From an uncultured Lachnospiraceae bacterium (GTDB lineage: Bacteria > Bacillota > Clostridia > Lachnospirales > Lachnospiraceae), in the NCBI GenBank assembly GCA_964619485.1, contig CAZUCI010000002.1, positions 27,975 through 91,974 of the forward strand: DNA of 64,000 nt, in the 5' to 3' direction. The translations under genes and the position numbers were made by a program. Shown piece by piece: positions 8,862-45,047 of this stretch (position 1 is its first letter; each line of letters opens with the position of its first letter). A model generated the notes under the pieces. It was not told the origin of the DNA. It saw only the letters and a program-made list of their open reading frames with translations, and made no database searches.

Positions 8862-9623
8862 TTACTTATTTTGCTGATACACGGGATCAGCAGGGTAACC
8901 GCCCCAGAGCTTCTGCATTCCGCGCTGAATGGCATCCTTGGAATTTTTCCAGTCCTTGTCATGGTTGCGGTAATCAAATTTTTCCACCAGCCAGGCAACA
9001 TCTTCACCGACGCGCAGCATATTTTTCTGCATCAGGTCAAAGAGCAGTGGAAAAAGCGCATCCTTCTGCTTGTCATTTAACTGTTCATCTGCAGCGGCAC
9101 ACAAATCGCCGAAATGATGCAGGCAGAGACCTTTGCTGTTTTTCAGCATTTCTGTCATTTCACCATCTTTTTTATACATAAAGAAAAAGGTGTCCAGATA
9201 TCTTTGATAGGTTTTTTTAAAGCTGTTGCAGATATAGCAGGATTCCTCCCGGTTTTTGACCCAGGCAGCCATGGAATTGAGGTTGTCGGAGTCCTTTTTT
9301 AATTTATTCATAAAGGAAGTTTTTCCCCGGGAGAATATTCTGATCTGTTCATTTAATTCCTGATTCATCTGAATATAATGAGTTTTTAAAATCCAGCCGT
9401 TGCCCAGTGTATTTCCATAATCAAACATTTTCTTGAAATGAGCTCTGCAAAAGCCGGCTTTGTCTGTGGCATCACGCATGTCACTTTCCATATAGGAAGA
9501 GCCGGAGCCCAGAACCAGGTCTAACAGGTCCTGTTCCACATTTCGTTCTATGTAGCAGAATGGACATTCGTCATCGGCATGGAACGCATCGGTCAGGGGA
9601 ATGGTGTATAGGGTTTCTTTCAT
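8862..9623 (-). CDS. DUF6062-like Cys/His-rich conserved hypothetical protein
   Basis: CPFC, FCRAH, CYIC and LCLHH repeated metal-binding pattern; KFDYRN and WKNSKD near the C-terminus. Confidence 0.7.
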   Translation of the reverse strand: MKETLYTIPLTDAFHADDECPFCYIERNVEQDLLDLVLGSGSSYMESDMRDATDKAGFCRAHFKKMFDYGNTLGNGWILKTHYIQMNQELNEQIRIFSRGKTSFMNKLKKDSDNLNSMAAWVKNREESCYICNSFKKTYQRYLDTFFFMYKKDGEMTEMLKNSKGLCLHHFGDLCAAADEQLNDKQKDALFPLLFDLMQKNMLRVGEDVAWLVEKFDYRNHDKDWKNSKDAIQRGMQKLWGGYPADPVYQQNK

Positions 9624-9727
9624 GTACGGTGTAACCTCCTGTGTCAGGGTATTTTGATGCTTCTATTTTAAGCTTTTTGCAGGATACATACAAGGAAAAG
9701 AATTTTACGGAGGGTGGATAGAAGAAA

Positions 9728-9804
9728 GTGTCGGAAACAAAAGATAGAAATATGGGATGGAAATAGGAGATAGAAATAAGAGATAGAAATAAGTGCTGGG
9801 AATA
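9728..9804 (+). repeat. Degenerate 13-bp tandem repeat (consensus ~agagatagaaata), about 6 units
   Basis: aaagatagaaata, tgggatggaaata, ggagatagaaata, agagatagaaata and agtgctgggaata in register. Confidence 0.8.
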
Positions 9805-9933
9805 AGTAATTTAGGATAGTAAATCCTGTCGCATTGTGTTAAAATGTGTAACGATAATGCGAAACGTGAAAGAAGACCTTTTTTATAGGATTCTTTTGCA
9901 GCAAAAATGAATAAAGAACGGGAGGAATTAGTT

Positions 9934-11301
9934 GTGGATACCAAAAAAGAAGCAATCCGCGACGCCAGACAGCTGGGAGTACCAAAAATGATGCTCCTTG
10001 GCTTACAGCATATGTTTGCCATGTTTGGTGCAACAATCTTAGTACCAATTCTTGTTAACACTTATTTCGAGGGAGAGGGCTTATCCATTCAGGTTACTTT
10101 AATCTGTGCAGGTCTTGGAACATTATTTTTCCATGTGTGCTCAAAATTTAAAGTTCCTGCATTTTTAGGTTCATCCTTTGCTTTCCTTGGCGGCTTTGCC
10201 AGTGTAGCTGCTCTTGATACAGGAAAGTTTGCCGATATGACCATGGGAGAAAAGCTTCCATATGCATGTGGCGGTATTGTAGTAGCTGGTCTGCTCTACA
10301 TTGTATTGGCTTTAGTCATCAAAGTAGTTGGTGTACAGAAGGTTATGCGTTTCCTGCCACCTGTTGTCACAGGACCAATTATTATCTGTATTGGTTTAAG
10401 TCTCGCTCCAAGCGCAGTCAGCAATGCATCCACAAACTGGATTCTTGCAATTATCGCTTTGGCAGTTATTATTATCTTTAACATCTGGGGAAAAGGAATG
10501 TTCCGTATTCTTCCGATTCTTATGGGTGTTGTTATTTCCTACGTTGTAGCTATTATTATGAATGCAGTTGGAATCACCAATCCTGATGGTTCTGCTATTC
10601 TTAATTTCTCATCTGTTGCATCTGCAAGCTTTGTAGGACTTCCACCTTTCCAGCTTTGCAAATTTGATATTACGGCAATCCTTGTAATGGCACCAATTGC
10701 TCTTGCAACTATGATGGAGCATATCGGTGATATTTCTGCTATTTCTGCAACTGTTGGTCAGAATTTCCTGGCTGATCCAGGCTTACATCGTACCTTGATC
10801 GGTGATGGTATTGCAACCTCGCTTGCAGCCATGTTTGGCGGACCTGCAAATACTACATACGGTGAAAATACCGGTGTATTGGAGCTCAGTCATGTTTACG
10901 ATCCACGTGTCGTAAGAATCGCAGCAGGTTATGCAGTAGTGCTCAGCTTTATTCCAAAAGTAGCTGAGATTATTGGTTCCTTACCAGCATCTATTATTGG
11001 TGGAATCAGCTTCATGCTTTATGGAATGATTTCTGCAATCGGTGTTCGTAATATTGTTGAGAATCGTGTAGACTTCACAAAATCCCGTAACCTGATTATT
11101 GCAGCAGTCATCCTTGTCTGCGGTCTTGGTTTCTCCGGTGGACTTACCTTCACGATTGCCGGAACCTCCATCACATTGACTTCTCTTGCAATTGCAGCTA
11201 TCGCAGGTATTCTCTTAAATGCCATTTTGCCTGGTAATGAGTACACCTTTAATTCGGAAGACGCAGCAAAAGTAAAAGAGATTGATGAAATTGAAAAGTA
11301 G
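9934..11301 (+). CDS. uraA: NCS2 uracil/xanthine permease (UraA/PyrP-like)
   Basis: GLQHMFAMFGAT, LGSSFAF, PPVVTG, MEHIGD and the TTYGENTG signature. Likely GTG start at 9934 after GGAGG. Substrate (uracil) is inferred from the motif. Confidence 0.88.
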   Translation: MDTKKEAIRDARQLGVPKMMLLGLQHMFAMFGATILVPILVNTYFEGEGLSIQVTLICAGLGTLFFHVCSKFKVPAFLGSSFAFLGGFASVAALDTGKFADMTMGEKLPYACGGIVVAGLLYIVLALVIKVVGVQKVMRFLPPVVTGPIIICIGLSLAPSAVSNASTNWILAIIALAVIIIFNIWGKGMFRILPILMGVVISYVVAIIMNAVGITNPDGSAILNFSSVASASFVGLPPFQLCKFDITAILVMAPIALATMMEHIGDISAISATVGQNFLADPGLHRTLIGDGIATSLAAMFGGPANTTYGENTGVLELSHVYDPRVVRIAAGYAVVLSFIPKVAEIIGSLPASIIGGISFMLYGMISAIGVRNIVENRVDFTKSRNLIIAAVILVCGLGFSGGLTFTIAGTSITLTSLAIAAIAGILLNAILPGNEYTFNSEDAAKVKEIDEIEK

Positions 11302-11365
11302 GATTTAAATTGAAGAGTTGGATTCAAATTGAATCTTTGAGTTGAAGAGTTGAAATCCTTTTTAG

Positions 11366-11399
11366 ACCCTCGCCAGAGCATTAGCTGGCGGGGGTTTTT
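11366..11399 (+). terminator. Rho-independent terminator of the permease
   Basis: accctcgccag-loop-ctggcgggggt stem followed by ttttt. Confidence 0.85.
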
Positions 11400-11532
11400 G
11401 TGAATGAAGACGGATGAAGTGAAGCATGTTTTGTCTGCTCTGTTGGGGAAATCATGATGAGAGAAAGTAGATGAATCATAAAAATCACTGTACCTTCGCT
11501 GCCTAATATATTGAAAATGGTGTTATGTAAAT

Positions 11533-11719
11533 CAATTGGGGCGTAGAGAAGATATAGACAGGCCTGACGGAAAAAATATCGAAGCAAATTGGACGCTGGG
11601 AGAGGATAGCCTGCTGTAGCGTCCAAATTCATAGTGAGAATTGGCAAAAATGAGTTATGCAAACAAGTTACGTAAACCAAATTGGACGTAGAAGAGAGAA
11701 ATTTGTTACAGCGCCCAAT
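11533..11719. repeat. Three REP-like palindromic units (ttggacgct ... agcgtccaa)
   Basis: Perfect 9-bp inverted repeat at 11589-11597/11618-11626; degenerate copies near 11534 and 11682-11718. Confidence 0.6.
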
Positions 11720-11750
11720 GGGATCAATTATAATGCCATTTGCGGAGCGG

Positions 11751-11928
11751 CACAGGAGGAGATCGGGCTTGTTATGTGTCATTCAAAGAGCGCGCACAGG
11801 AGATCGGGCTTGTTATGTGTCATTCAAAGAGCGTGCACAGGAGATCGGGCTTGTTATGAGCTATTCGCGGAGCGCGCACAGGAAATTGAGCTCTATTAGG
11901 TGGCCTTCGCGGAACGGAATCCACAGGA
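11751..11928 (+). repeat. 41-bp tandem repeat array, about 4-5 units
   Basis: cacaggagatcgggcttgttatgtgtcattcaaagagcgcg units start at 11795, 11836 and 11877 (exact 41 spacing), with degenerate units at 11751 and 11922. Confidence 0.9.
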
Positions 11929-12141
11929 CATGTTACAGAAGATGATTCTCTTAAGAAAAAATAATACAAAAAATTACAGTAAAACAATTGCTATTTTCAT
12001 AAAAATATGATATTGTCAATTTACTTTCTAAATACAAACAATTCTTTCGTTTCTAAATCAGCAATTTAAAACGATGCAGAACAATCTTCAATTATTCCAA
12101 CTTTTAATTAATTTAATATGAGATACAAGGGAGGCGGGTGC

Positions 12142-12921
12142 ATGCTATATGAGTATTCGTGCAAAAAATATCCGATTTTGAAAAAGGAAGTACGCCAGCT
12201 GGAGGAGGAGCTGAAGCATTTACCGGAGGGCAATATGTATGTTTGCCATAATGGTAAATACAAAAAGTATTATATGACAGATGGCAAGTGCTCAACCTAT
12301 ATTCCCAGGAAGGACTACGAAATGGCAAAAGCCCTTGCGGTAGGTAAATATAAGCGGATAAGCTTAGAGGAAAAGGCAGCAGAGCTTAAGCTGATGGAAC
12401 AAATCACGGAACGCCTGGGGAAAAAGCAGGTGAAAAGAAAACAGATGCTTGCGGAAAATTCTGCATATGGTGAGCTGCTGAGTGAAGCGATAAAAGAGCA
12501 CATGAAAAGTGAGTGGTCAAATCAGGTATATGAAAAAAATCCAAATTTTAAAGAGCATCTGGTTCACAGGACGCTGGAGGGTGAATTTGTCAGGTCAAAA
12601 TCAGAGGTTATCATTGCCAATTCCCTGTTCTTAAATCATATCCCATATCGATACGAGTGTGCACTTCAATTAGGTGACGTTACGCTTTATCCGGATTTCA
12701 CAATTATGCATCCACAGACAGAGTAAATCTTTTTTTACGAGCATTTTGGATTAATGGACAATGCCGTCTACTTTGAAAAGACGATGGCAAAGATTAAGCT
12801 TTATAGTCAATATCAGATTTTTTTGGGAGTCAATTTAATCACCAGCTTTGAAACAAAGGACCAGCCAATTGATTCGGAAAAAATTGAACGGCTGATTCAA
12901 ATGTATTTTGTACAAAACTGA
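12142..12921 (+). pseudogene. Putative Vsr/DUF559-like PD-(D/E)xK endonuclease gene interrupted by one in-frame TAA at 12724-12726
   Basis: RBS GGGAGG precedes ATG 12142. Reading VRSKSEVIIANSL..IPYRYE..YPDFTIMHPQTE*IFFYEHFGLMD..SFETKDQPIDSEKIERLIQMYFVQN continues 64 codons in frame to TGA 12919-12921. Confidence 0.75.
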
Positions 12922-13007
12922 ATTAATTCCACAAATCAATCATCAGACTATTGATTTACCTCTCACAATATTAGAAAATAGAAAAAGAAAGTAAGAGGAG
13001 CAGACAA

Positions 13008-16000
13008 ATGTCATTACGTTTTTGTATCGGGCCTTCCGGGGCGGGGAAAAGCACCAGAGTATATGAAGAGATATTGAAAAGAGCAGAAGCCGACAGAAGC
13101 GGCCATTATCTGATAATTGTGCCGGACCAGTTTACCATGCAGACACAGAAGGTTTTGTGCCATATGGCCAGCTGCGGTGGAATTATGAATGTGGAGGTTT
13201 TAAGCTTTTCAAGGCTCGCACACCGCATTTTTGAGGAAATGGGAATCGAGAGTCTGCCAAAGCTGGATGACACTGGCAAAAATCTGATTCTGCGCCGTGT
13301 CGCAGGGGAAGTGGAAGAGAAGCTGACGGTTATTGGAGCCAACATGAGGAAGGTCGGCTATATTGCACAGGTAAAGTCTATGATTTCGGAATTTTCCCAG
13401 TATGGGATAGCGCCGGGAGACATGGATGAGTTTATTCAATTGAGTGAGAAAAAGGGAAATCTTCACGCAAAGCTGCAGGATTTAAAGCTTTTATATGAGG
13501 AATACCAGAAATATATAAAAGGACATTTCATTACTACGGAGGAAACTGTCGATCTTCTGCGTGAGCAGGTGCATCGTTCCAGAATACTGAAAGACAGTGT
13601 GATTGTATTTGACGGCTTTACAGGCTTCACCCCAATACAGGATCAGCTTCTGAGGGAGCTTTTACAGTATGCTAAGGAAATGATTGTGACACTGATTGGC
13701 GACAGCCGGGAACAGTTAGCCGGGGCTGTCCGTGAGGAATCTCTGTTTTATCTTTCGGCAAAAACCTATCATAAGCTGGAAAAGCTTGCGGCTGATGTGG
13801 GGGCTGTGCGCGGGGAGGATATTGAGCTTGTGAAACGTCCGGTTCGGCGTTATGAAAATAATGCTCAGCTTTCCCACCTGGAGCAGAATCTGTTTCGTAT
13901 GAAGCAGTCGAGGATGATTCTGGAGCAGGCATCAGCTGATATGGAACAGGCAGCAACCGACGCGAATCAGGCATCAGCTGATAAGCAGGAGGAAAAAAAT
14001 ATTTCGATTCTGCAGCTTCCGGACCCGAAGGCAGAGGTTAGCTGGTGTACCGGAGCAATCAGGAGACTGATTCGGGAAAAGAATTACAGCTATCGGGACT
14101 TTGCAGTCATTACCGGCGATTTACAGACCTATGGGCATTTGCTGAAGGAGGGATTTGCAGCGGATGGGATTCCACTTTTCCTGGATCAGAATGTGAGTCT
14201 GCTGAAGCATCCGTTTATGGTGTTTTTGAGTAGTATGCTGCGTATGCTCACCAGCGATTTTTCCTATGAAAATGTAATGGTATTCCTGCGGACAGGCTAT
14301 CTGGATTTCCAGGAGGAGGAAATAGATGGTTTTGAGCTGTATCTAAAACGCTTCGGTATTCGCGGAAAAAGAAATTATGAAAAAATGTTTGTCAGACCGG
14401 ATAAAAATCTGACAGAACTGAACGGGATGAGGCAGAAGCTGATGGAAGCCATTGCACCGCTTCTGGGCTGTAAACAGACAGCTGAGAGCTTTACAGAGGC
14501 ATTGTATGACATCTGCGTCAGCCTGGATATTGAGCAAAAGATCAAGGGGCAGGCAGAGAAATTTAAAGAACAGGGGAATCTGGTACGAGCCAGGGAGTAT
14601 GAGCAGGTCTATGGAGCAGTCATGGGATTGTTTGATCAGATTTATGAGCTGCTGAAGGAAGAAATGCCACTGGAAGAGTACGGAGAAATTCTTAAGGCCG
14701 GCTTTGCTGAGCTGAAGGTGGGAAGTCTGCCACAAAGTATTGACCAGGTGGTGGCCGGTGATCTGGAGCGAACAAGATTGAAGCCTGTCAAAGTCTTATT
14801 TATTCTGGGGGTAAACGATGGAATTATTCCCGGAGGAGGCGGAAGTGGTGGTCTGCTTTCTGATTTGGAGAGGGGATTTTTGCTGGATGCCGGAATTGAG
14901 CTGGCGCCCACACCAAGGCAAAAAGGGTTTGAGGAGAGAATGTATCTGTATATGAATATGACACAGCCCGCTGAAAAGCTCTTTTTAAGCTATGCCAGAA
15001 TCAACATGGCAGGTGAAACCATCCGCCCTTCTTATTTAATCCGATCGGTAGAAAAGCTTTACGAGGGTCTTGAGATAACCTGTATTGACAATCTGGATCA
15101 GATGGAAGCGGTGGAGAGCAGAGAGAGCGGAATGATTCTGTTTGCCAGACTTCTGCGGGAATACGCTGCAGGAAATCTTACCAAGGACAACAGAGACCTC
15201 TTTTTTGGATTGGCAGAGACCTACTATCAGACACCGGAGTTTTCAAAGCTTCTGGAAGCCGCATTTTATCACTATGAGGCGCTTCCAATTTCACAGGAAA
15301 ATGCAAAGGCGCTGTTTGGAGAGATACTTCGCACAAGCATCAGCAGGCTGGAGCAGTTCTCGGCCTGTGCCTATGCTCATTTTCTGAAATATGGGCTGAA
15401 ATTGCAGGAGGAAGAAGCGTTCTCCTTTGAATCCGTGGATATGGGAAATCTTTTTCATGAGACTCTGTATGAATATGGAAAATTTCTGCCGGAGAGCGGC
15501 TATACCTGGTTTACCTGCCCGGAGGATGTTATGGATTCCTATGTGGAGAAAAAGGTGGAGGCATTTGCAGCTACCTATGGTGGAACGATTCTGTATGATA
15601 ACGCCAGAAATGAGGCAATGATTCACCGGGTAAAAAATATCCTTAAGACAACGCTGCATACCCTGTCCTTTCAATTAAAAAAGGGCGTGTTTGAGCCTGC
15701 TGGCTATGAGATTCCCTTCTTTGGGGAAAGTACCCTTGCTGATGGCAGCAGGGCAGAGCTCTATGGTAAGATTGACCGTATGGATACCGCCTCCGTAGAC
15801 GGCAAAACCTATGTAAAAATATTGGATTATAAATCCGGCAGACATCAGTTTGATCTGGTCCGGCTCTTTTATGGACTGGATTTGCAGCTGGCAGTTTACA
15901 TGAATGCAGCTTTAAAAAGGCAGAAGTCGCTGCATCCGGGAGATGAGATTATTCCGGCTGCGATTCTTTACTATCAGCTGGAGGACCCCATGGTGGAGGG

Positions 16001-16451
16001 AGCAGCAGGGGATGGTCCGCAGGTCATTTTGGAAAAGGTGCATGAAAAGCTGAAGGTGGAGGGACTGATTAATGAGTCGGATGAAGTGCTTTCCCTGTTA
16101 GATACGTCCATGACGGAGGAATCCCAGGTTATACCGGTCAAACGTAAAAAGAGCGGTGAGCTTTCAGCGTCATCACAGACAGCGCCAAGGGCAGATTTTG
16201 ATTTGATCGGGGAGTATGCCAGCTGGAAAATCAGTGAGATAGGAAAAGAAATCAGAGAAGGAAATATTGAAGCGAAGCCCTATGATGGAGAGCTCAGCGC
16301 CTGCACCTACTGCGGGTACCGTTCTATTTGCGGCTTTGAGGGAAGAATGCCGGGCTATGAGAGCAATCACGGCGAGTATACAAAGGAGCAGGCACAGGAA
16401 GAGATGAAAAAACTGCTTGGGAAAGCTTCTGACGGAAAGGAGGTAGAGTAA
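13008..16451 (+). CDS. addB: ATP-dependent helicase/nuclease subunit B
   Basis: GPSGAGKS, IVPDQFT, DGFTGF; nuclease GKIDRMD..ILDYKSG; Fe-S cysteines FSAC and CTYCGYRSIC. Confidence 0.95.
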   Translation: MSLRFCIGPSGAGKSTRVYEEILKRAEADRSGHYLIIVPDQFTMQTQKVLCHMASCGGIMNVEVLSFSRLAHRIFEEMGIESLPKLDDTGKNLILRRVAGEVEEKLTVIGANMRKVGYIAQVKSMISEFSQYGIAPGDMDEFIQLSEKKGNLHAKLQDLKLLYEEYQKYIKGHFITTEETVDLLREQVHRSRILKDSVIVFDGFTGFTPIQDQLLRELLQYAKEMIVTLIGDSREQLAGAVREESLFYLSAKTYHKLEKLAADVGAVRGEDIELVKRPVRRYENNAQLSHLEQNLFRMKQSRMILEQASADMEQAATDANQASADKQEEKNISILQLPDPKAEVSWCTGAIRRLIREKNYSYRDFAVITGDLQTYGHLLKEGFAADGIPLFLDQNVSLLKHPFMVFLSSMLRMLTSDFSYENVMVFLRTGYLDFQEEEIDGFELYLKRFGIRGKRNYEKMFVRPDKNLTELNGMRQKLMEAIAPLLGCKQTAESFTEALYDICVSLDIEQKIKGQAEKFKEQGNLVRAREYEQVYGAVMGLFDQIYELLKEEMPLEEYGEILKAGFAELKVGSLPQSIDQVVAGDLERTRLKPVKVLFILGVNDGIIPGGGGSGGLLSDLERGFLLDAGIELAPTPRQKGFEERMYLYMNMTQPAEKLFLSYARINMAGETIRPSYLIRSVEKLYEGLEITCIDNLDQMEAVESRESGMILFARLLREYAAGNLTKDNRDLFFGLAETYYQTPEFSKLLEAAFYHYEALPISQENAKALFGEILRTSISRLEQFSACAYAHFLKYGLKLQEEEAFSFESVDMGNLFHETLYEYGKFLPESGYTWFTCPEDVMDSYVEKKVEAFAATYGGTILYDNARNEAMIHRVKNILKTTLHTLSFQLKKGVFEPAGYEIPFFGESTLADGSRAELYGKIDRMDTASVDGKTYVKILDYKSGRHQFDLVRLFYGLDLQLAVYMNAALKRQKSLHPGDEIIPAAILYYQLEDPMVEGAAGDGPQVILEKVHEKLKVEGLINESDEVLSLLDTSMTEESQVIPVKRKKSGELSASSQTAPRADFDLIGEYASWKISEIGKEIREGNIEAKPYDGELSACTYCGYRSICGFEGRMPGYESNHGEYTKEQAQEEMKKLLGKASDGKEVE

Positions 16452-25201: not shown

Positions 25202-28200
25202 ATGAAAGACTTAATTTTTAAATTTATGAAAAGGAATGGAAGGCTTGTTTTGGGGGCAGCCCTGGTGCTGGCACTCTTTGTTGGCGTGCTTGTAAATGCA
25301 GCAAAGAACAAGGACGAATTTACGCCTGGGGGACAGGAAAATCATCAGCTTCCCTTTCAAAATGAGGATATGGACAAGACCTTTGATGGAAAGCAGTCTG
25401 CCACAGACGGACTGGAAATAGAAGAAAACACGGAGGATGATGAGAAGGAAAAGGAGCTGGAAGAGGGCGATGATGAGCTTTTGTCAAAGGACGATTCTGA
25501 TTTGCAGGATCAGCTGATTAACATTGCAAATCTGGTAAATCCTTCGGACAATGGAACAAAGGAAAACCCTGTTCCATCCCAGAATCCTTCAGCACCGGTA
25601 TTGAATGTTGGTCAAAAGGACGATGGTGATCCTTCGACTCCGCCTGGAATCGGACCTGTTCCGGGGATTGGAGACAATCCGGGTAATGGAGATGGTGGAA
25701 AGGGCGATGGCAAAGGGGACGGAAATGATGATGACAAGGAAAAAGAAGATCCCCCAGTCACACCTCCCAAGCCTGGAGAGGATAAAAAACCACCTAAAAA
25801 TCCTTCAACAAATCAGGATTTGACCCATGGGGATGATGATGCCTCTTACGGGAATAAGGATGAAAATAAGACTGCAGACAGCAAGGTCCCAGACAATACC
25901 TTTGAGGGAGGAACCATCCGAATGGTTAACTGTGTGCAGAAGTCAGATCAGATTTATCTGTTCCAGGGGGAATGCCCAACAGCGGAGCTCATGAAGGATT
26001 ATCTGAGTGTGGATGCCAGAATTTCTGTGGCAGCTGCTCCCGGACAGGCGGCATCGACAGTACATGTCCAGGATCTTAATTATTCCTATAAGAATAACCG
26101 TGATTCCTATGGCGGAGATTACTGTGTTGACTGGAACAGCGCTGAGGAGGGGACACAGAACCAGGCACCCTTACAGCCGGGAATCTATCAGGCATCCGTA
26201 TTTATGATCAATCCGGACAACGGAACCCAGACCCAGGCACGCGCAGGCTTTTCCTATACAGTTTATGATTATCAGCTGGAGCTTGAAGATTTTGAAGAAA
26301 ATTACAGTGCCCTTTCGGACAGTGCAAAGCCGCAGCTGCTTCACGCAGGTGAGAATGAGGAAATCAGCCTTGTGGCAGCCATTTCCAATATGAATAAAAT
26401 CATTCTGCAGAGAACAAATTCAGGGAAAAAATACACCCATATATTGAAAAAGAATGCAGACGGAACCTATGCGTCCTTCTTTGGGGGATGGTCTCTGTCA
26501 AAGGACGGAGCCACAGTTGGAAATGTTTTCGAGCTTTCCCATGTGAAGGCAGAGGAGCTGCTGGAGGATGCGGATGGAAATAAGTATTATAAAAAGACTC
26601 TATATCCGGTATGGATATCTGCCGGTGATGCGAGCAGCTATTATGAGATTACCTTGAAAAACGATGGAAGTGTGACAGCAGAGCGTTATCTGGGGGACTG
26701 CCGCAGCGTGAAAACCCTGGATATTCCCAATGGAGTGACAGTTGTAGACCTGACCTCCATAGGAAGGGACAGCTTTCCGGTGCTCACCTTAATCAATATT
26801 CCGGAGAGTGTTACATCCATTCTTTATCTTGACTCTATGACAATGTACCCAAAGCTTTCTGCATTTGGTGTGGCAGATGAAAATAAGCTTTTTATGGATG
26901 TGTCCGGAATTCTCTATAGTAAATCAGGGAAGACACTCCTTCGGGTTCCACCGGCAATGAGTAATCTGAGTGCCTGGTCAAAATACGTGGAAAGTATTGG
27001 CAGTAAAGCATTTCTTGATGTAAAAATGGCACAGGTGTCATTACCTGCATCTGTAAGAGAGATTGGGGAGCATGCGTTTGATCAGGCCAAAATTGCGACA
27101 CTGACAGAGCAGTCACCTCAAATTGTCTGGGGAAGCGGAAATCTCATAAGGAATGGGGCGGGTGCTTTCAATATCTCCCATATTCAGGTAGAGGATTCCC
27201 CGGAGGATGCTGTTTATTTAAAGCGTATCAGCAGCTTGAGTGATTATCTGACCACAGAGGGAAGCGACAGCCCGGGAAATGATGCAATGAGTATTCTGAC
27301 AACACCGTCAGGTGTAGAAAAGAATTATCAATATAAGGAAGGCTGGATTCTGGATCAGAATCAGACCAGAGTGGTGATGGGAACTGCAGCAGCCGGGACA
27401 CAGGCAGTGCTTCCCGAAGGTGTTACCACGGTAAAATCCGGTGCACTTTCTGGGTGTATGCAGCTGCAAAGGCTTACCATGTCATCTACAGTTAACATGC
27501 TGCCGGATGGCTGCTTTTTATCTGATTCTCTGACGGCAGTTTATTTTACAACAGCGACACCACCTAATATGGCGGGTGGAAAAATATTTGGCAGCTCCAT
27601 TCCAGACAGGATACGTCTGTATGTTCCGGTAGATTATCTTACAGACTATCTGAACATCTGGAAGCGCTATGAGCAAAGGGGCTACGGAAGTGGAACCACA
27701 GCGGGATTTACGGTTCCCTATGGTGACGGCATCAGTCAGGATGAGGCGGGTGCTGTATATTGGGAAGAAACGCCGGGGGCATTTACGTTGTTATCTGGAG
27801 AGCAGGTAGCCGGTGAATACACGGTAAAGGAAGGAACCACCAAAATTAAAAGCGGCGCCTTTTTGGGAAATACAGCACTTTCTGCTATTCATCTTGGCAG
27901 CGCAATTCAGACAATTGAAGCCAAAGCTTTTCAGGAATGTACAGCCTTGACAACAGTCACAGTGGGAGGACCTTTGACCACGGTGGGGGATTATGCTTTC
28001 AATAAGTGCAGTGCATTATCTGTTTTCCAATGGGAAAATGTTGCGGCGACCAGAAGTCTTTCCTCCATTGGACAGTGGGCATTTGCTGAGAGTGGATTGA
28101 CTGGAATTCCTGTTGATTTGGTCAGTGCCGCGGGAGAACCAAAATTATTTACGGTAAGAATTTCCCAGGATGGAGACTTATCTCCTTACAACAGCTGCGT

Positions 28201-44787: not shown

Positions 44788-45047
44788 AATCTTTTTTCTC
44801 CGTGTCCACTGTATGGGGTACATTATAACAATAAAGAGGATGTAAAACTCCGATTTTGCTGCAGTTGTGCCCCGTTATTTTTGTAATATGGGGCATAAGT
44901 ACATAAAATTCGTCTTCTTGTGCCCTAAAAGCATTATGTAAACCTACATTTAGCGTTGTTGCGGGGCACAAGAAGGGCTTTTTGGCTAATCCATGCCCCG
45001 CTTCTAAATTAAAATTTCTGCCCCGCTGCAAATGATATAGCTAATTA

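Follow-up and report, generated by a model that had tools for sequence, protein, structure and literature searches.

The DNA analyzed here (the window; 64,000 nucleotides, positions 27,975 to 91,974 of contig CAZUCI010000002.1, assembly GCA_964619485.1) comes from an uncultured bacterium of the family Lachnospiraceae. At the locus described, a uraA-like permease gene and addB, encoding subunit B of a helicase-nuclease, are separated by 1,706 bp, and the intervening DNA contains a dispersed repeat, a short tandem array and a gene interrupted by a TAA codon (Table 1). The gene is likely to be a nonsense-inactivated paralogue of an uncharacterized Lachnospiraceae family of predicted PD-(D/E)xK nucleases, residing in a lineage-specific insert together with repeats unrelated to it. 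Intact members of the family are stand-alone proteins of about 258 amino acids (aa), made up of an N-terminal coiled coil and a C-terminal nuclease domain; in the window copy, codon 203 has become a TAA, which severs the protein between residues D193 and E208. Gene and flanks form a 1.7-kb insert between uraA and addB, specific to the lineage. The repeats within the upstream 700 bp would not be a functional partner of the nuclease; they are a decayed copy of a repeat similar to miniature inverted-repeat transposable elements (MITEs) and of a local triplication of a 41-bp unit.

Table 1. Features of the uraA-addB region, in window coordinates
Feature	Position	Strand	Remarks
uraA-like uracil/xanthine permease gene	9907..11301	+	Left border of the insert; open reading frame (ORF)
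Short 19/22-nt direct repeats	11288..11357		Overlap the permease 3' end; Tandem Repeats Finder (TRF) score 71, family D2
Intrinsic terminator of the permease gene	11364..11399	+	13-bp GC-rich stem, then UUUUU
Diverged copy of the dispersed-repeat core, ~200 bp	11501..11723	+	nhmmer
Hairpin with 12-bp stem, inside the dispersed-repeat copy	11589-11626		Folding free energy (dG) -20.4, z -3.3; bounds also given as 11586-11629
Local tandem array, 41-nt unit x3.1	11757..11883		90% matches, TRF score 205
AT-rich promoter/leader region	11940..12141	+	GC 0.335
Shine-Dalgarno AAGGGAGG	12127-12134	+	Precedes ATG 12142
Truncated ORF, 194 aa	12142..12726	+	N-terminal domain and first half of the PD-(D/E)xK domain (RSKSE helix, PD193)
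Premature TAA, codon 203 of a 267-codon frame	12724..12726	+	Variable alignment column
Untranslated gene remainder, 64 codons and TGA (12919-12921)	12727..12921	+	E208-H209-F-G strand, rest of the nuclease core
addB (helicase-nuclease subunit B)	13008..16451	+	Right border of the insert; ORF

The listed ORF spans 12118-12726, but the likely true start is the ATG at 12142, where the database protein P0002 also begins. Translation from this ATG gives 194 aa, or 259 if the TAA is read through. The original prediction, made from the letters of the DNA, had the ORF end at 12726 and the same frame continue for 64 codons, and both coordinates and frame are correct. The TAA falls, as had been noticed, between the PD and EHFG motifs (YPDF is encoded at 12688-12699, its PD at 12691-12696, and EHFG at 12739-12750). 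Homologues are many, over 1,100 being found in a word-indexed search and 5,925 clusters at 50% identity in an exhaustive one. Full-length homologues measure about 255-260 aa; they do not end at the TAA position, a possibility to be checked according to the prediction, and align past it to the C-terminus. The column hit by the stop is variable, E, Q and K being the commonest residues.

The same split into 194 and 55 aa occurs in four further metagenome assemblies, the aligned cassettes being at least 99.85% identical to that of the window. Three of these span the whole 1.9-kb cassette, the fourth 1.3 kb of it, and the copy number of the 41-nt array is identical in all three that span the array. 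Since four further assemblies carry the same split, the TAA is genuine and not an assembly artefact, and the gene is a real pseudogene. No intact allele above 48% identity was found among 5.8 billion proteins. The stop removes the strand with the invariant residues E208 and H209; consequently the 194-aa product, devoid of half of the predicted catalytic core, should be unable to form this core and should be inactive, in line with the earlier claim that the nuclease is dead unless read through.

On sequence comparison, the 64 codons 3' of the stop have begun drifting. In this segment 6 of 22 conserved columns deviate from the family consensus, a level equalled by 2 of 113 members only. Deviation 5' of the stop (4 of 44 conserved columns) is equalled by 30 of the 113 members, and is thus unremarkable. 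The changes after the stop hit Y206, conserved in 100% of members, and P236, conserved in 98%. These figures bear on the reading according to which the TAA is read through, recoded or a sequencing error, production of the full-length, active nuclease continuing. No further stop is met for 64 codons, and the invariant E208, H209, G211, Y218 and E245 are retained, as such a reading would have it. The same TAA is however present in the assembly of the window and in the four others, no recoding signal and no Rfam element were seen, and substitutions at conserved columns are in excess after the stop. Moreover, about 7 of the 150 family matches listed carry in-frame stops of all three kinds, scattered as in ordinary decay, and several matches are fragments. 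Continued production of the full-length nuclease is therefore extremely improbable, and the window copy is an ordinary pseudogene.

AlphaFold2 models built on family alignments reach a pLDDT (predicted local distance difference test) of 91 for the full protein, and a pLDDT of 94 with a pTM (predicted template modelling score) of 0.88 for the C-terminal domain (residues 130-267). In the domain model, a helix (32-43) is followed by four short strands, a strand (75-81), a helix (87-102) and a strand (111-115). Model and Foldseek comparison agree on the alpha-beta-beta-beta-alpha-beta core of the PD-(D/E)xK, or restriction-endonuclease, fold, which the C-terminal domain is thus predicted to have; a nuclease fold had been anticipated, and the Foldseek check found it. 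Nearly all the 50 best matches of this domain in PDB are PD-(D/E)xK nucleases. Bax1 ranks first (prob 0.98, E 6e-3), and other matches include DrdV, R2 RLE, 3ijm, XisH, MunI, AF1548, Can2/Card1/Cdn1 and viral cap-snatching endonucleases. When the full-length model is used, the remaining matches are mainly prefoldin chains, falling on the N-terminal helix, the beta-meander and the long helix. Invariant residues fall in three places: R159, S160, K161, S162 and E163 lie in the first helix, P192-D193 opens the second core strand, and the third carries E208-H209-(F)-G211. P192-D193 and E208 occupy the strands expected for the catalytic signature of the superfamily.

Two features of the domain tell against the interpretation favored here. 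Foldseek E-values are modest, none being 1e-3 or lower, and TM-scores range from 0.4 to 0.5, so that the case for the fold is made by the uniformity of the matches, taken together with the sequence evidence. In addition, the canonical lysine of the (D/E)xK motif is replaced by F210. Because of this replacement, catalysis by family proteins would involve a variant active site, in which the role of the missing lysine may be taken by the invariant helix-1 residues K161 and R159. Intact members are presumably metal-dependent DNA endonucleases. The N-terminus of intact members features a prefoldin-like coiled coil and a three-stranded beta-meander, and probably serves in oligomerization or in contacting DNA.

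The nuclease had been labeled as Vsr/DUF559-like in the original prediction, and a likeness exists: an acidic residue in helix 1 is followed by PD(F) and then by E-x-x-G, and DUF559 (PF04480) proteins too are small and often multicopy. Yet DUF559/Vsr Pfam models gave no match at E<=10 with the query and at E<=1 with 29 members; zero DUF559 matches were returned when the whole genome, home to five paralogues, was searched in all six frames; comparison with a true DUF559 protein by hhalign yielded a probability of 0.1, and no Vsr structure is found among the 50 Foldseek matches listed. Membership in Vsr/DUF559 was consequently rejected. No meaningful family match was obtained in Pfam, NCBIfam, PHROGs or PDB sequences with the single protein, the 29 members or a profile. 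The family is absent from Pfam and NCBIfam, and unnamed in curated libraries of protein families. Some members had been flagged "DUF6788 (faint)" in a precomputed annotation, which was not reproducible. One member has a faint match to Pfam DUF790 (E 0.057), which we take to be the Bax1 family. Bax1, the archaeal partner of XPB (PDB 6p4w, 6p66, 8gy8), shares the PD-(D/E)xK core with the family (TM 0.45), but sequence identity is about 16%, the domain architecture is different and the family loci have no XPB partner gene; Bax1 is archaeal, whereas the family is bacterial, and restricted to Lachnospiraceae.

Described PD-(D/E)xK families were matched in PADLOC, the profiles hit being PDC-S68 (2e-30), PDC-S69 (4e-9) and HEAT_CxxC_PD-DEXK (3.6e-4). 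The nuclease domain of PDC-S68 is clearly homologous to the C-terminal ~125 residues of the family. The match is confined to positions 1088-1218 of the 1221 of the profile, and does not extend to the full-length architecture: PDC-S68 is a profile of about 1,220 positions, whereas the family protein has 258 aa, a coiled-coil N-terminus and no helicase. The same C-terminal residues are clearly homologous to PDC-S69 at positions 140-260 of 289, and the N-terminal halves do not align. PDC systems are experimentally untested candidates, proposed only from their embedding in BREX, DISARM or restriction-modification (RM) loci (Payne et al., bioRxiv 10.1101/2024.01.29.577857). Loci of the family are in contrast not embedded in defence systems. 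These matches, the presence of the same domain at the end of ~1,250-aa superfamily 1 (SF1) helicase proteins in Lachnospiraceae, and the extreme sequence diversity, patchy distribution and birth-and-death turnover of the family would suit a role in defence against phages: the family would then consist of single-gene nucleases, short relatives of PDC-S68 and PDC-S69, and the gene in the window would be a defence gene since lost. With the nuclease domain alone in common, relatives which are themselves candidates, and neighbors which are housekeeping or sporulation genes and not defence islands or mobile elements, such a role is very doubtful. Family and helicase-nuclease candidates have a nuclease domain in common all the same.

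The helicase proteins are worth a description. Two of them, ~1,250 aa long (L149 1537-5286, + strand; L150 1187-4876, - strand), carry an unknown N-terminus of about 600 aa and an SF1 helicase (AAA_30/UvrD_C_2), and end in this nuclease domain. Their similarity to PDC-S68 is one of size and layout, and not drawn from the PADLOC scan. A Bro-N protein is the neighbor of one, a 700-aa RE_endonuc protein that of the other. In the relative G009, a 1,184-aa UvrD-type helicase with RQC and helix-turn-helix (HTH) domains (L030 1879-5430, - strand) has the nuclease domain inserted in helicase domain 1 (residues ~307-414). Its assignment to PDC-S68 was rejected, the protein being a UvrD/RQC helicase with GajB-like matches.

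Members of the family were found in 90 of 300 Lachnospiraceae genera, with 1-7 copies per genome, and the 16 genomes representing other families of the order were all devoid of them; the family is found almost only in Lachnospiraceae. The genome under study hosts five diverged paralogues, four of them intact, and the window copy is ~29-44% identical to the others. Each of the five lies between housekeeping genes, and no two family copies in this genome are near-identical. Elsewhere too the contexts are housekeeping or sporulation genes, and not defence islands or mobile elements; no conserved partner gene was found near family members. Most members are preceded by 150 bp of AT-rich DNA, an extended -10-like motif and an AAGGAGG ribosome-binding site. 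These upstream sequences suggest that each intact member is expressed from a sigma-A-type promoter of its own and a strong ribosome-binding site.

One subgroup is adjacent to spoVAC, a gene of the spoVA sporulation operon, and this position is kept across Lachnospiraceae genera. Its members are 41-63% identical, against 53-76% for SpoVAC. The subgroup includes L001 6001-6783 and 9 of the 78 homologous loci (L032, L104, L055, L088, L049, L052, L077, L044 and L075). A sporulation-specific promoter, suggested by these members, was dropped, since the upstream regions have an extended -10 and resemble sigma-A promoters. In four species of the genus, a further orthogroup occupies a syntenic position. 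Both cases are signs of vertical descent. Identical proteins reside in one context wherever they were sampled: P0002 in 4 of 4 places, the Roseburia faecis copy in 10 of 10, P0011 in 8 of 8. No near-identical copy was seen in a new context, and no polymorphism within a species, absence of the gene being noticed only between species. What emerges besides the pseudogene is a large, diverse and unnamed family of Lachnospiraceae proteins with a nuclease fold. As Lachnospiraceae are dominant gut commensals, such a widespread, putative accessory nuclease, present in up to seven copies per genome, is a reasonable target for biochemistry. Its role, be it repair, restriction or selfish propagation, would if known explain the location of the genes in unstable intergenic islands.

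The permease gene bordering the insert is 87-90% identical, at the protein level, to the gene immediately 5' of addB in three related species (a Xan_ur_permease Pfam match was scored on the identical gene in L111, ADDB_N/PDDEXK_1 matches on an identical addB gene). In these other species of the genus uraA and addB are adjacent, at a distance of 13 bp (relative G017), ~281 bp and ~360 bp. The spacers of the relatives are short and show no similarity to the spacer of the window, and for this reason the 1.7-kb cassette is regarded as lineage-specific, the comparisons being between species. The presence/absence at uraA-addB junctions invoked in the original prediction is thus observed, the cassette being absent in three related species. 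Its GC content (0.34-0.44 vs. 0.40-0.47 nearby) provides no compositional signal of foreign DNA. A consensus scan for promoters and terminators was uninformative and overlooked the terminator of uraA; folding recovered it and showed it to be real (dG -23.4 kcal/mol, z -3.8). No terminator is found between pseudogene and addB, the 12921-13007 segment folding weakly. Since a terminator follows uraA and none precedes addB, addBA is probably transcribed in this organism from a promoter inside the cassette.

The ~700 bp of repeat-bearing, non-coding DNA reported upstream of the gene do exist (718 bp, 11400-12117), and host the tandem array and the hairpin listed in Table 1. No Rfam match at E<=1 was found within 9500-13200, and a riboswitch or known non-coding RNA (ncRNA) in this gap was no longer considered. 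The 11501-11723 segment matches 14 other intergenic sites in the genome (nhmmer, E from 8e-11 to 4e-4). It belongs to a dispersed repeat with a core of ~200 bp and a long form of ~0.8 kb, present in at least 15 copies including that of the window. Copies reside at C11:1692-1895, C31:10824-11017, C5:38508-38717, C3:29949-30133, C1:4565-4773 and nine more sites; they are strictly intergenic, contain TTGGACG-type hairpins in the core and have no Rfam match. The repeat resembles either a MITE or an undescribed family of ncRNAs. The 41-nt unit has no other copy in the genome and is unique to this locus, where its copies are 100, 98 and 83% identical. The repeats in question are therefore heterogeneous, being a decayed copy of a dispersed repeat and a local tandem array. 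Among gaps of 250 bp or more in this genome, 27% carry tandem and 25% dispersed repeats. The other paralogues also adjoin tandem or dispersed repeats, the sequences of which are unrelated. A second dispersed repeat, 153-184 bp long, has a copy elsewhere in the window (~44832-45015; C2:72806-72989). Two copies of it, 91% identical, bracket the paralogue on C9, and more are found on C47, C8 and C41.

The original prediction also called for homologue flanks enriched in tandem or palindromic repeats. This holds true in part. Tandem repeats are enriched beside family genes, and the association of repeats and family is statistically real, but the units share no sequence or motif, and neither side nor spacing is constant. 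At the 78 homologous loci, gaps flanking family genes have medians of 286 and 270 bp, compared with 51 bp for other gaps; family loci are in other words measurably associated with long, repeat-rich non-coding DNA. No 6-8-mer is shared by the repeat units above shuffled controls. Units are unrelated, may be placed on one side of the gene or the other and at variable distance from it, and neither sequence nor spacing nor position is conserved across family loci. The spectrum of tandem-repeat periods corresponds to the genome background, in which a period of 40-42 nt is not special. A CRISPR-like or iteron interpretation was rejected, no unit or motif being shared and the periods being those of the background.

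A part of the data fits the favored reading less comfortably. Each of the five paralogues of this genome is flanked by a tandem repeat on at least one side. When gaps of at least 250 bp are considered, tandem-repeat bases make up 10.1% of the DNA beside family genes vs. 3.6% in other gaps, and a tandem repeat is present in 25 of 80 family-flanking gaps vs. 8 of 62 other gaps, the gene calls behind these gap and repeat statistics being crude ORF calls. Some syntenic sites hold members which are only 32-38% identical. At the site downstream of ppdK, members 32% identical are found in opposite orientation, next to PpdK proteins 88% identical. Divergent members at syntenic sites hint at turnover or at insertion hot spots. 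Moreover, the accumulation of junk in the weakly constrained flanks of accessory genes, by which the excess of repeats would be accounted for, is itself something we infer.

It is conceivable that the nuclease activity itself promotes duplications. In the broadest form of this idea, the ~258-aa E-H-F-G proteins are a new class of chromosomally resident, fast-diversifying solo endonucleases, whose own activity creates the unusually long gaps, rich in tandem repeats, by self-cleavage and repair, homing-like replacement at hot spots or defence, the window copy having died recently. Such a class is rather unlikely. According to the reading preferred here, that of an inactivated paralogue beside unrelated repeats, repeats of this sort would accumulate in the long, weakly constrained gaps which are typical of the flanks of the family.

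Several traits of the family recall selfish elements. As free-standing homing endonuclease genes, family genes are solo nuclease genes, intergenic and patchy in distribution, and pseudogenes recur among them. A nuclease of this type may have inserted between uraA and addB, and be now in the decay phase of a cycle of gain, fixation and decay, the tandem repeats being scars left by its own cutting and the ensuing repair, or else DNA that arrived together with the gene. The lack of a conserved partner, the long flanking gaps with a roughly threefold excess of tandem repeats over other gaps, the variation from 0 to 7 copies among genomes, the absence of the insert from the three syntenic relatives, the ppdK-downstream site occupied in opposite orientations, and the many copies at contig ends would all be accommodated.

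Terminal inverted or direct repeats do not bracket the window gene, and comparison of flanks, both between the five paralogues and across 75 loci of homologues, revealed no similarity except between close orthologues; neither defined ends nor conserved flanks could hence be recognized. Insertion sequences (IS) and transposons were rejected, terminal repeats and near-identical copies being absent. Unlike homing endonuclease genes, the family provided no presence/absence polymorphism within species, no relocated identical copy and no target site. Within genomes no pair of near-identical copies was found; no identical protein was seen in more than one context, and in three species sampled the gene is fixed. 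The divergence of the spoVAC-adjacent subgroup tracks that of its neighbor, a further orthogroup keeps its synteny in four species, and repeat units have no common motif. A selfish or homing-type origin is, on balance, distinctly improbable. The functional repeat-associated mobile or defence module envisaged in the original prediction is not supported either: the dispersed repeat is spread genome-wide, terminal repeats and a partner gene are missing, contexts are single and neighbors are housekeeping genes.

For the large cluster P0046, look-up gave just one 1.3-kb contig. An IS (DDE_Tnp_1 transposase; L144 1181-2731) resides in the long gap beside the R. faecis member in one human-gut metagenome, the gap being free of IS in the other nine places sampled. 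In draft and metagenome assemblies, family genes often lie within ~1.5 kb of contig ends, and in each of the 8 contigs with P0011 the end is reached 160-590 bp 3' of the gene. This suggests that flanks of family genes break assemblies, and the intergenic islands which host the genes appear to do so in metagenomes.

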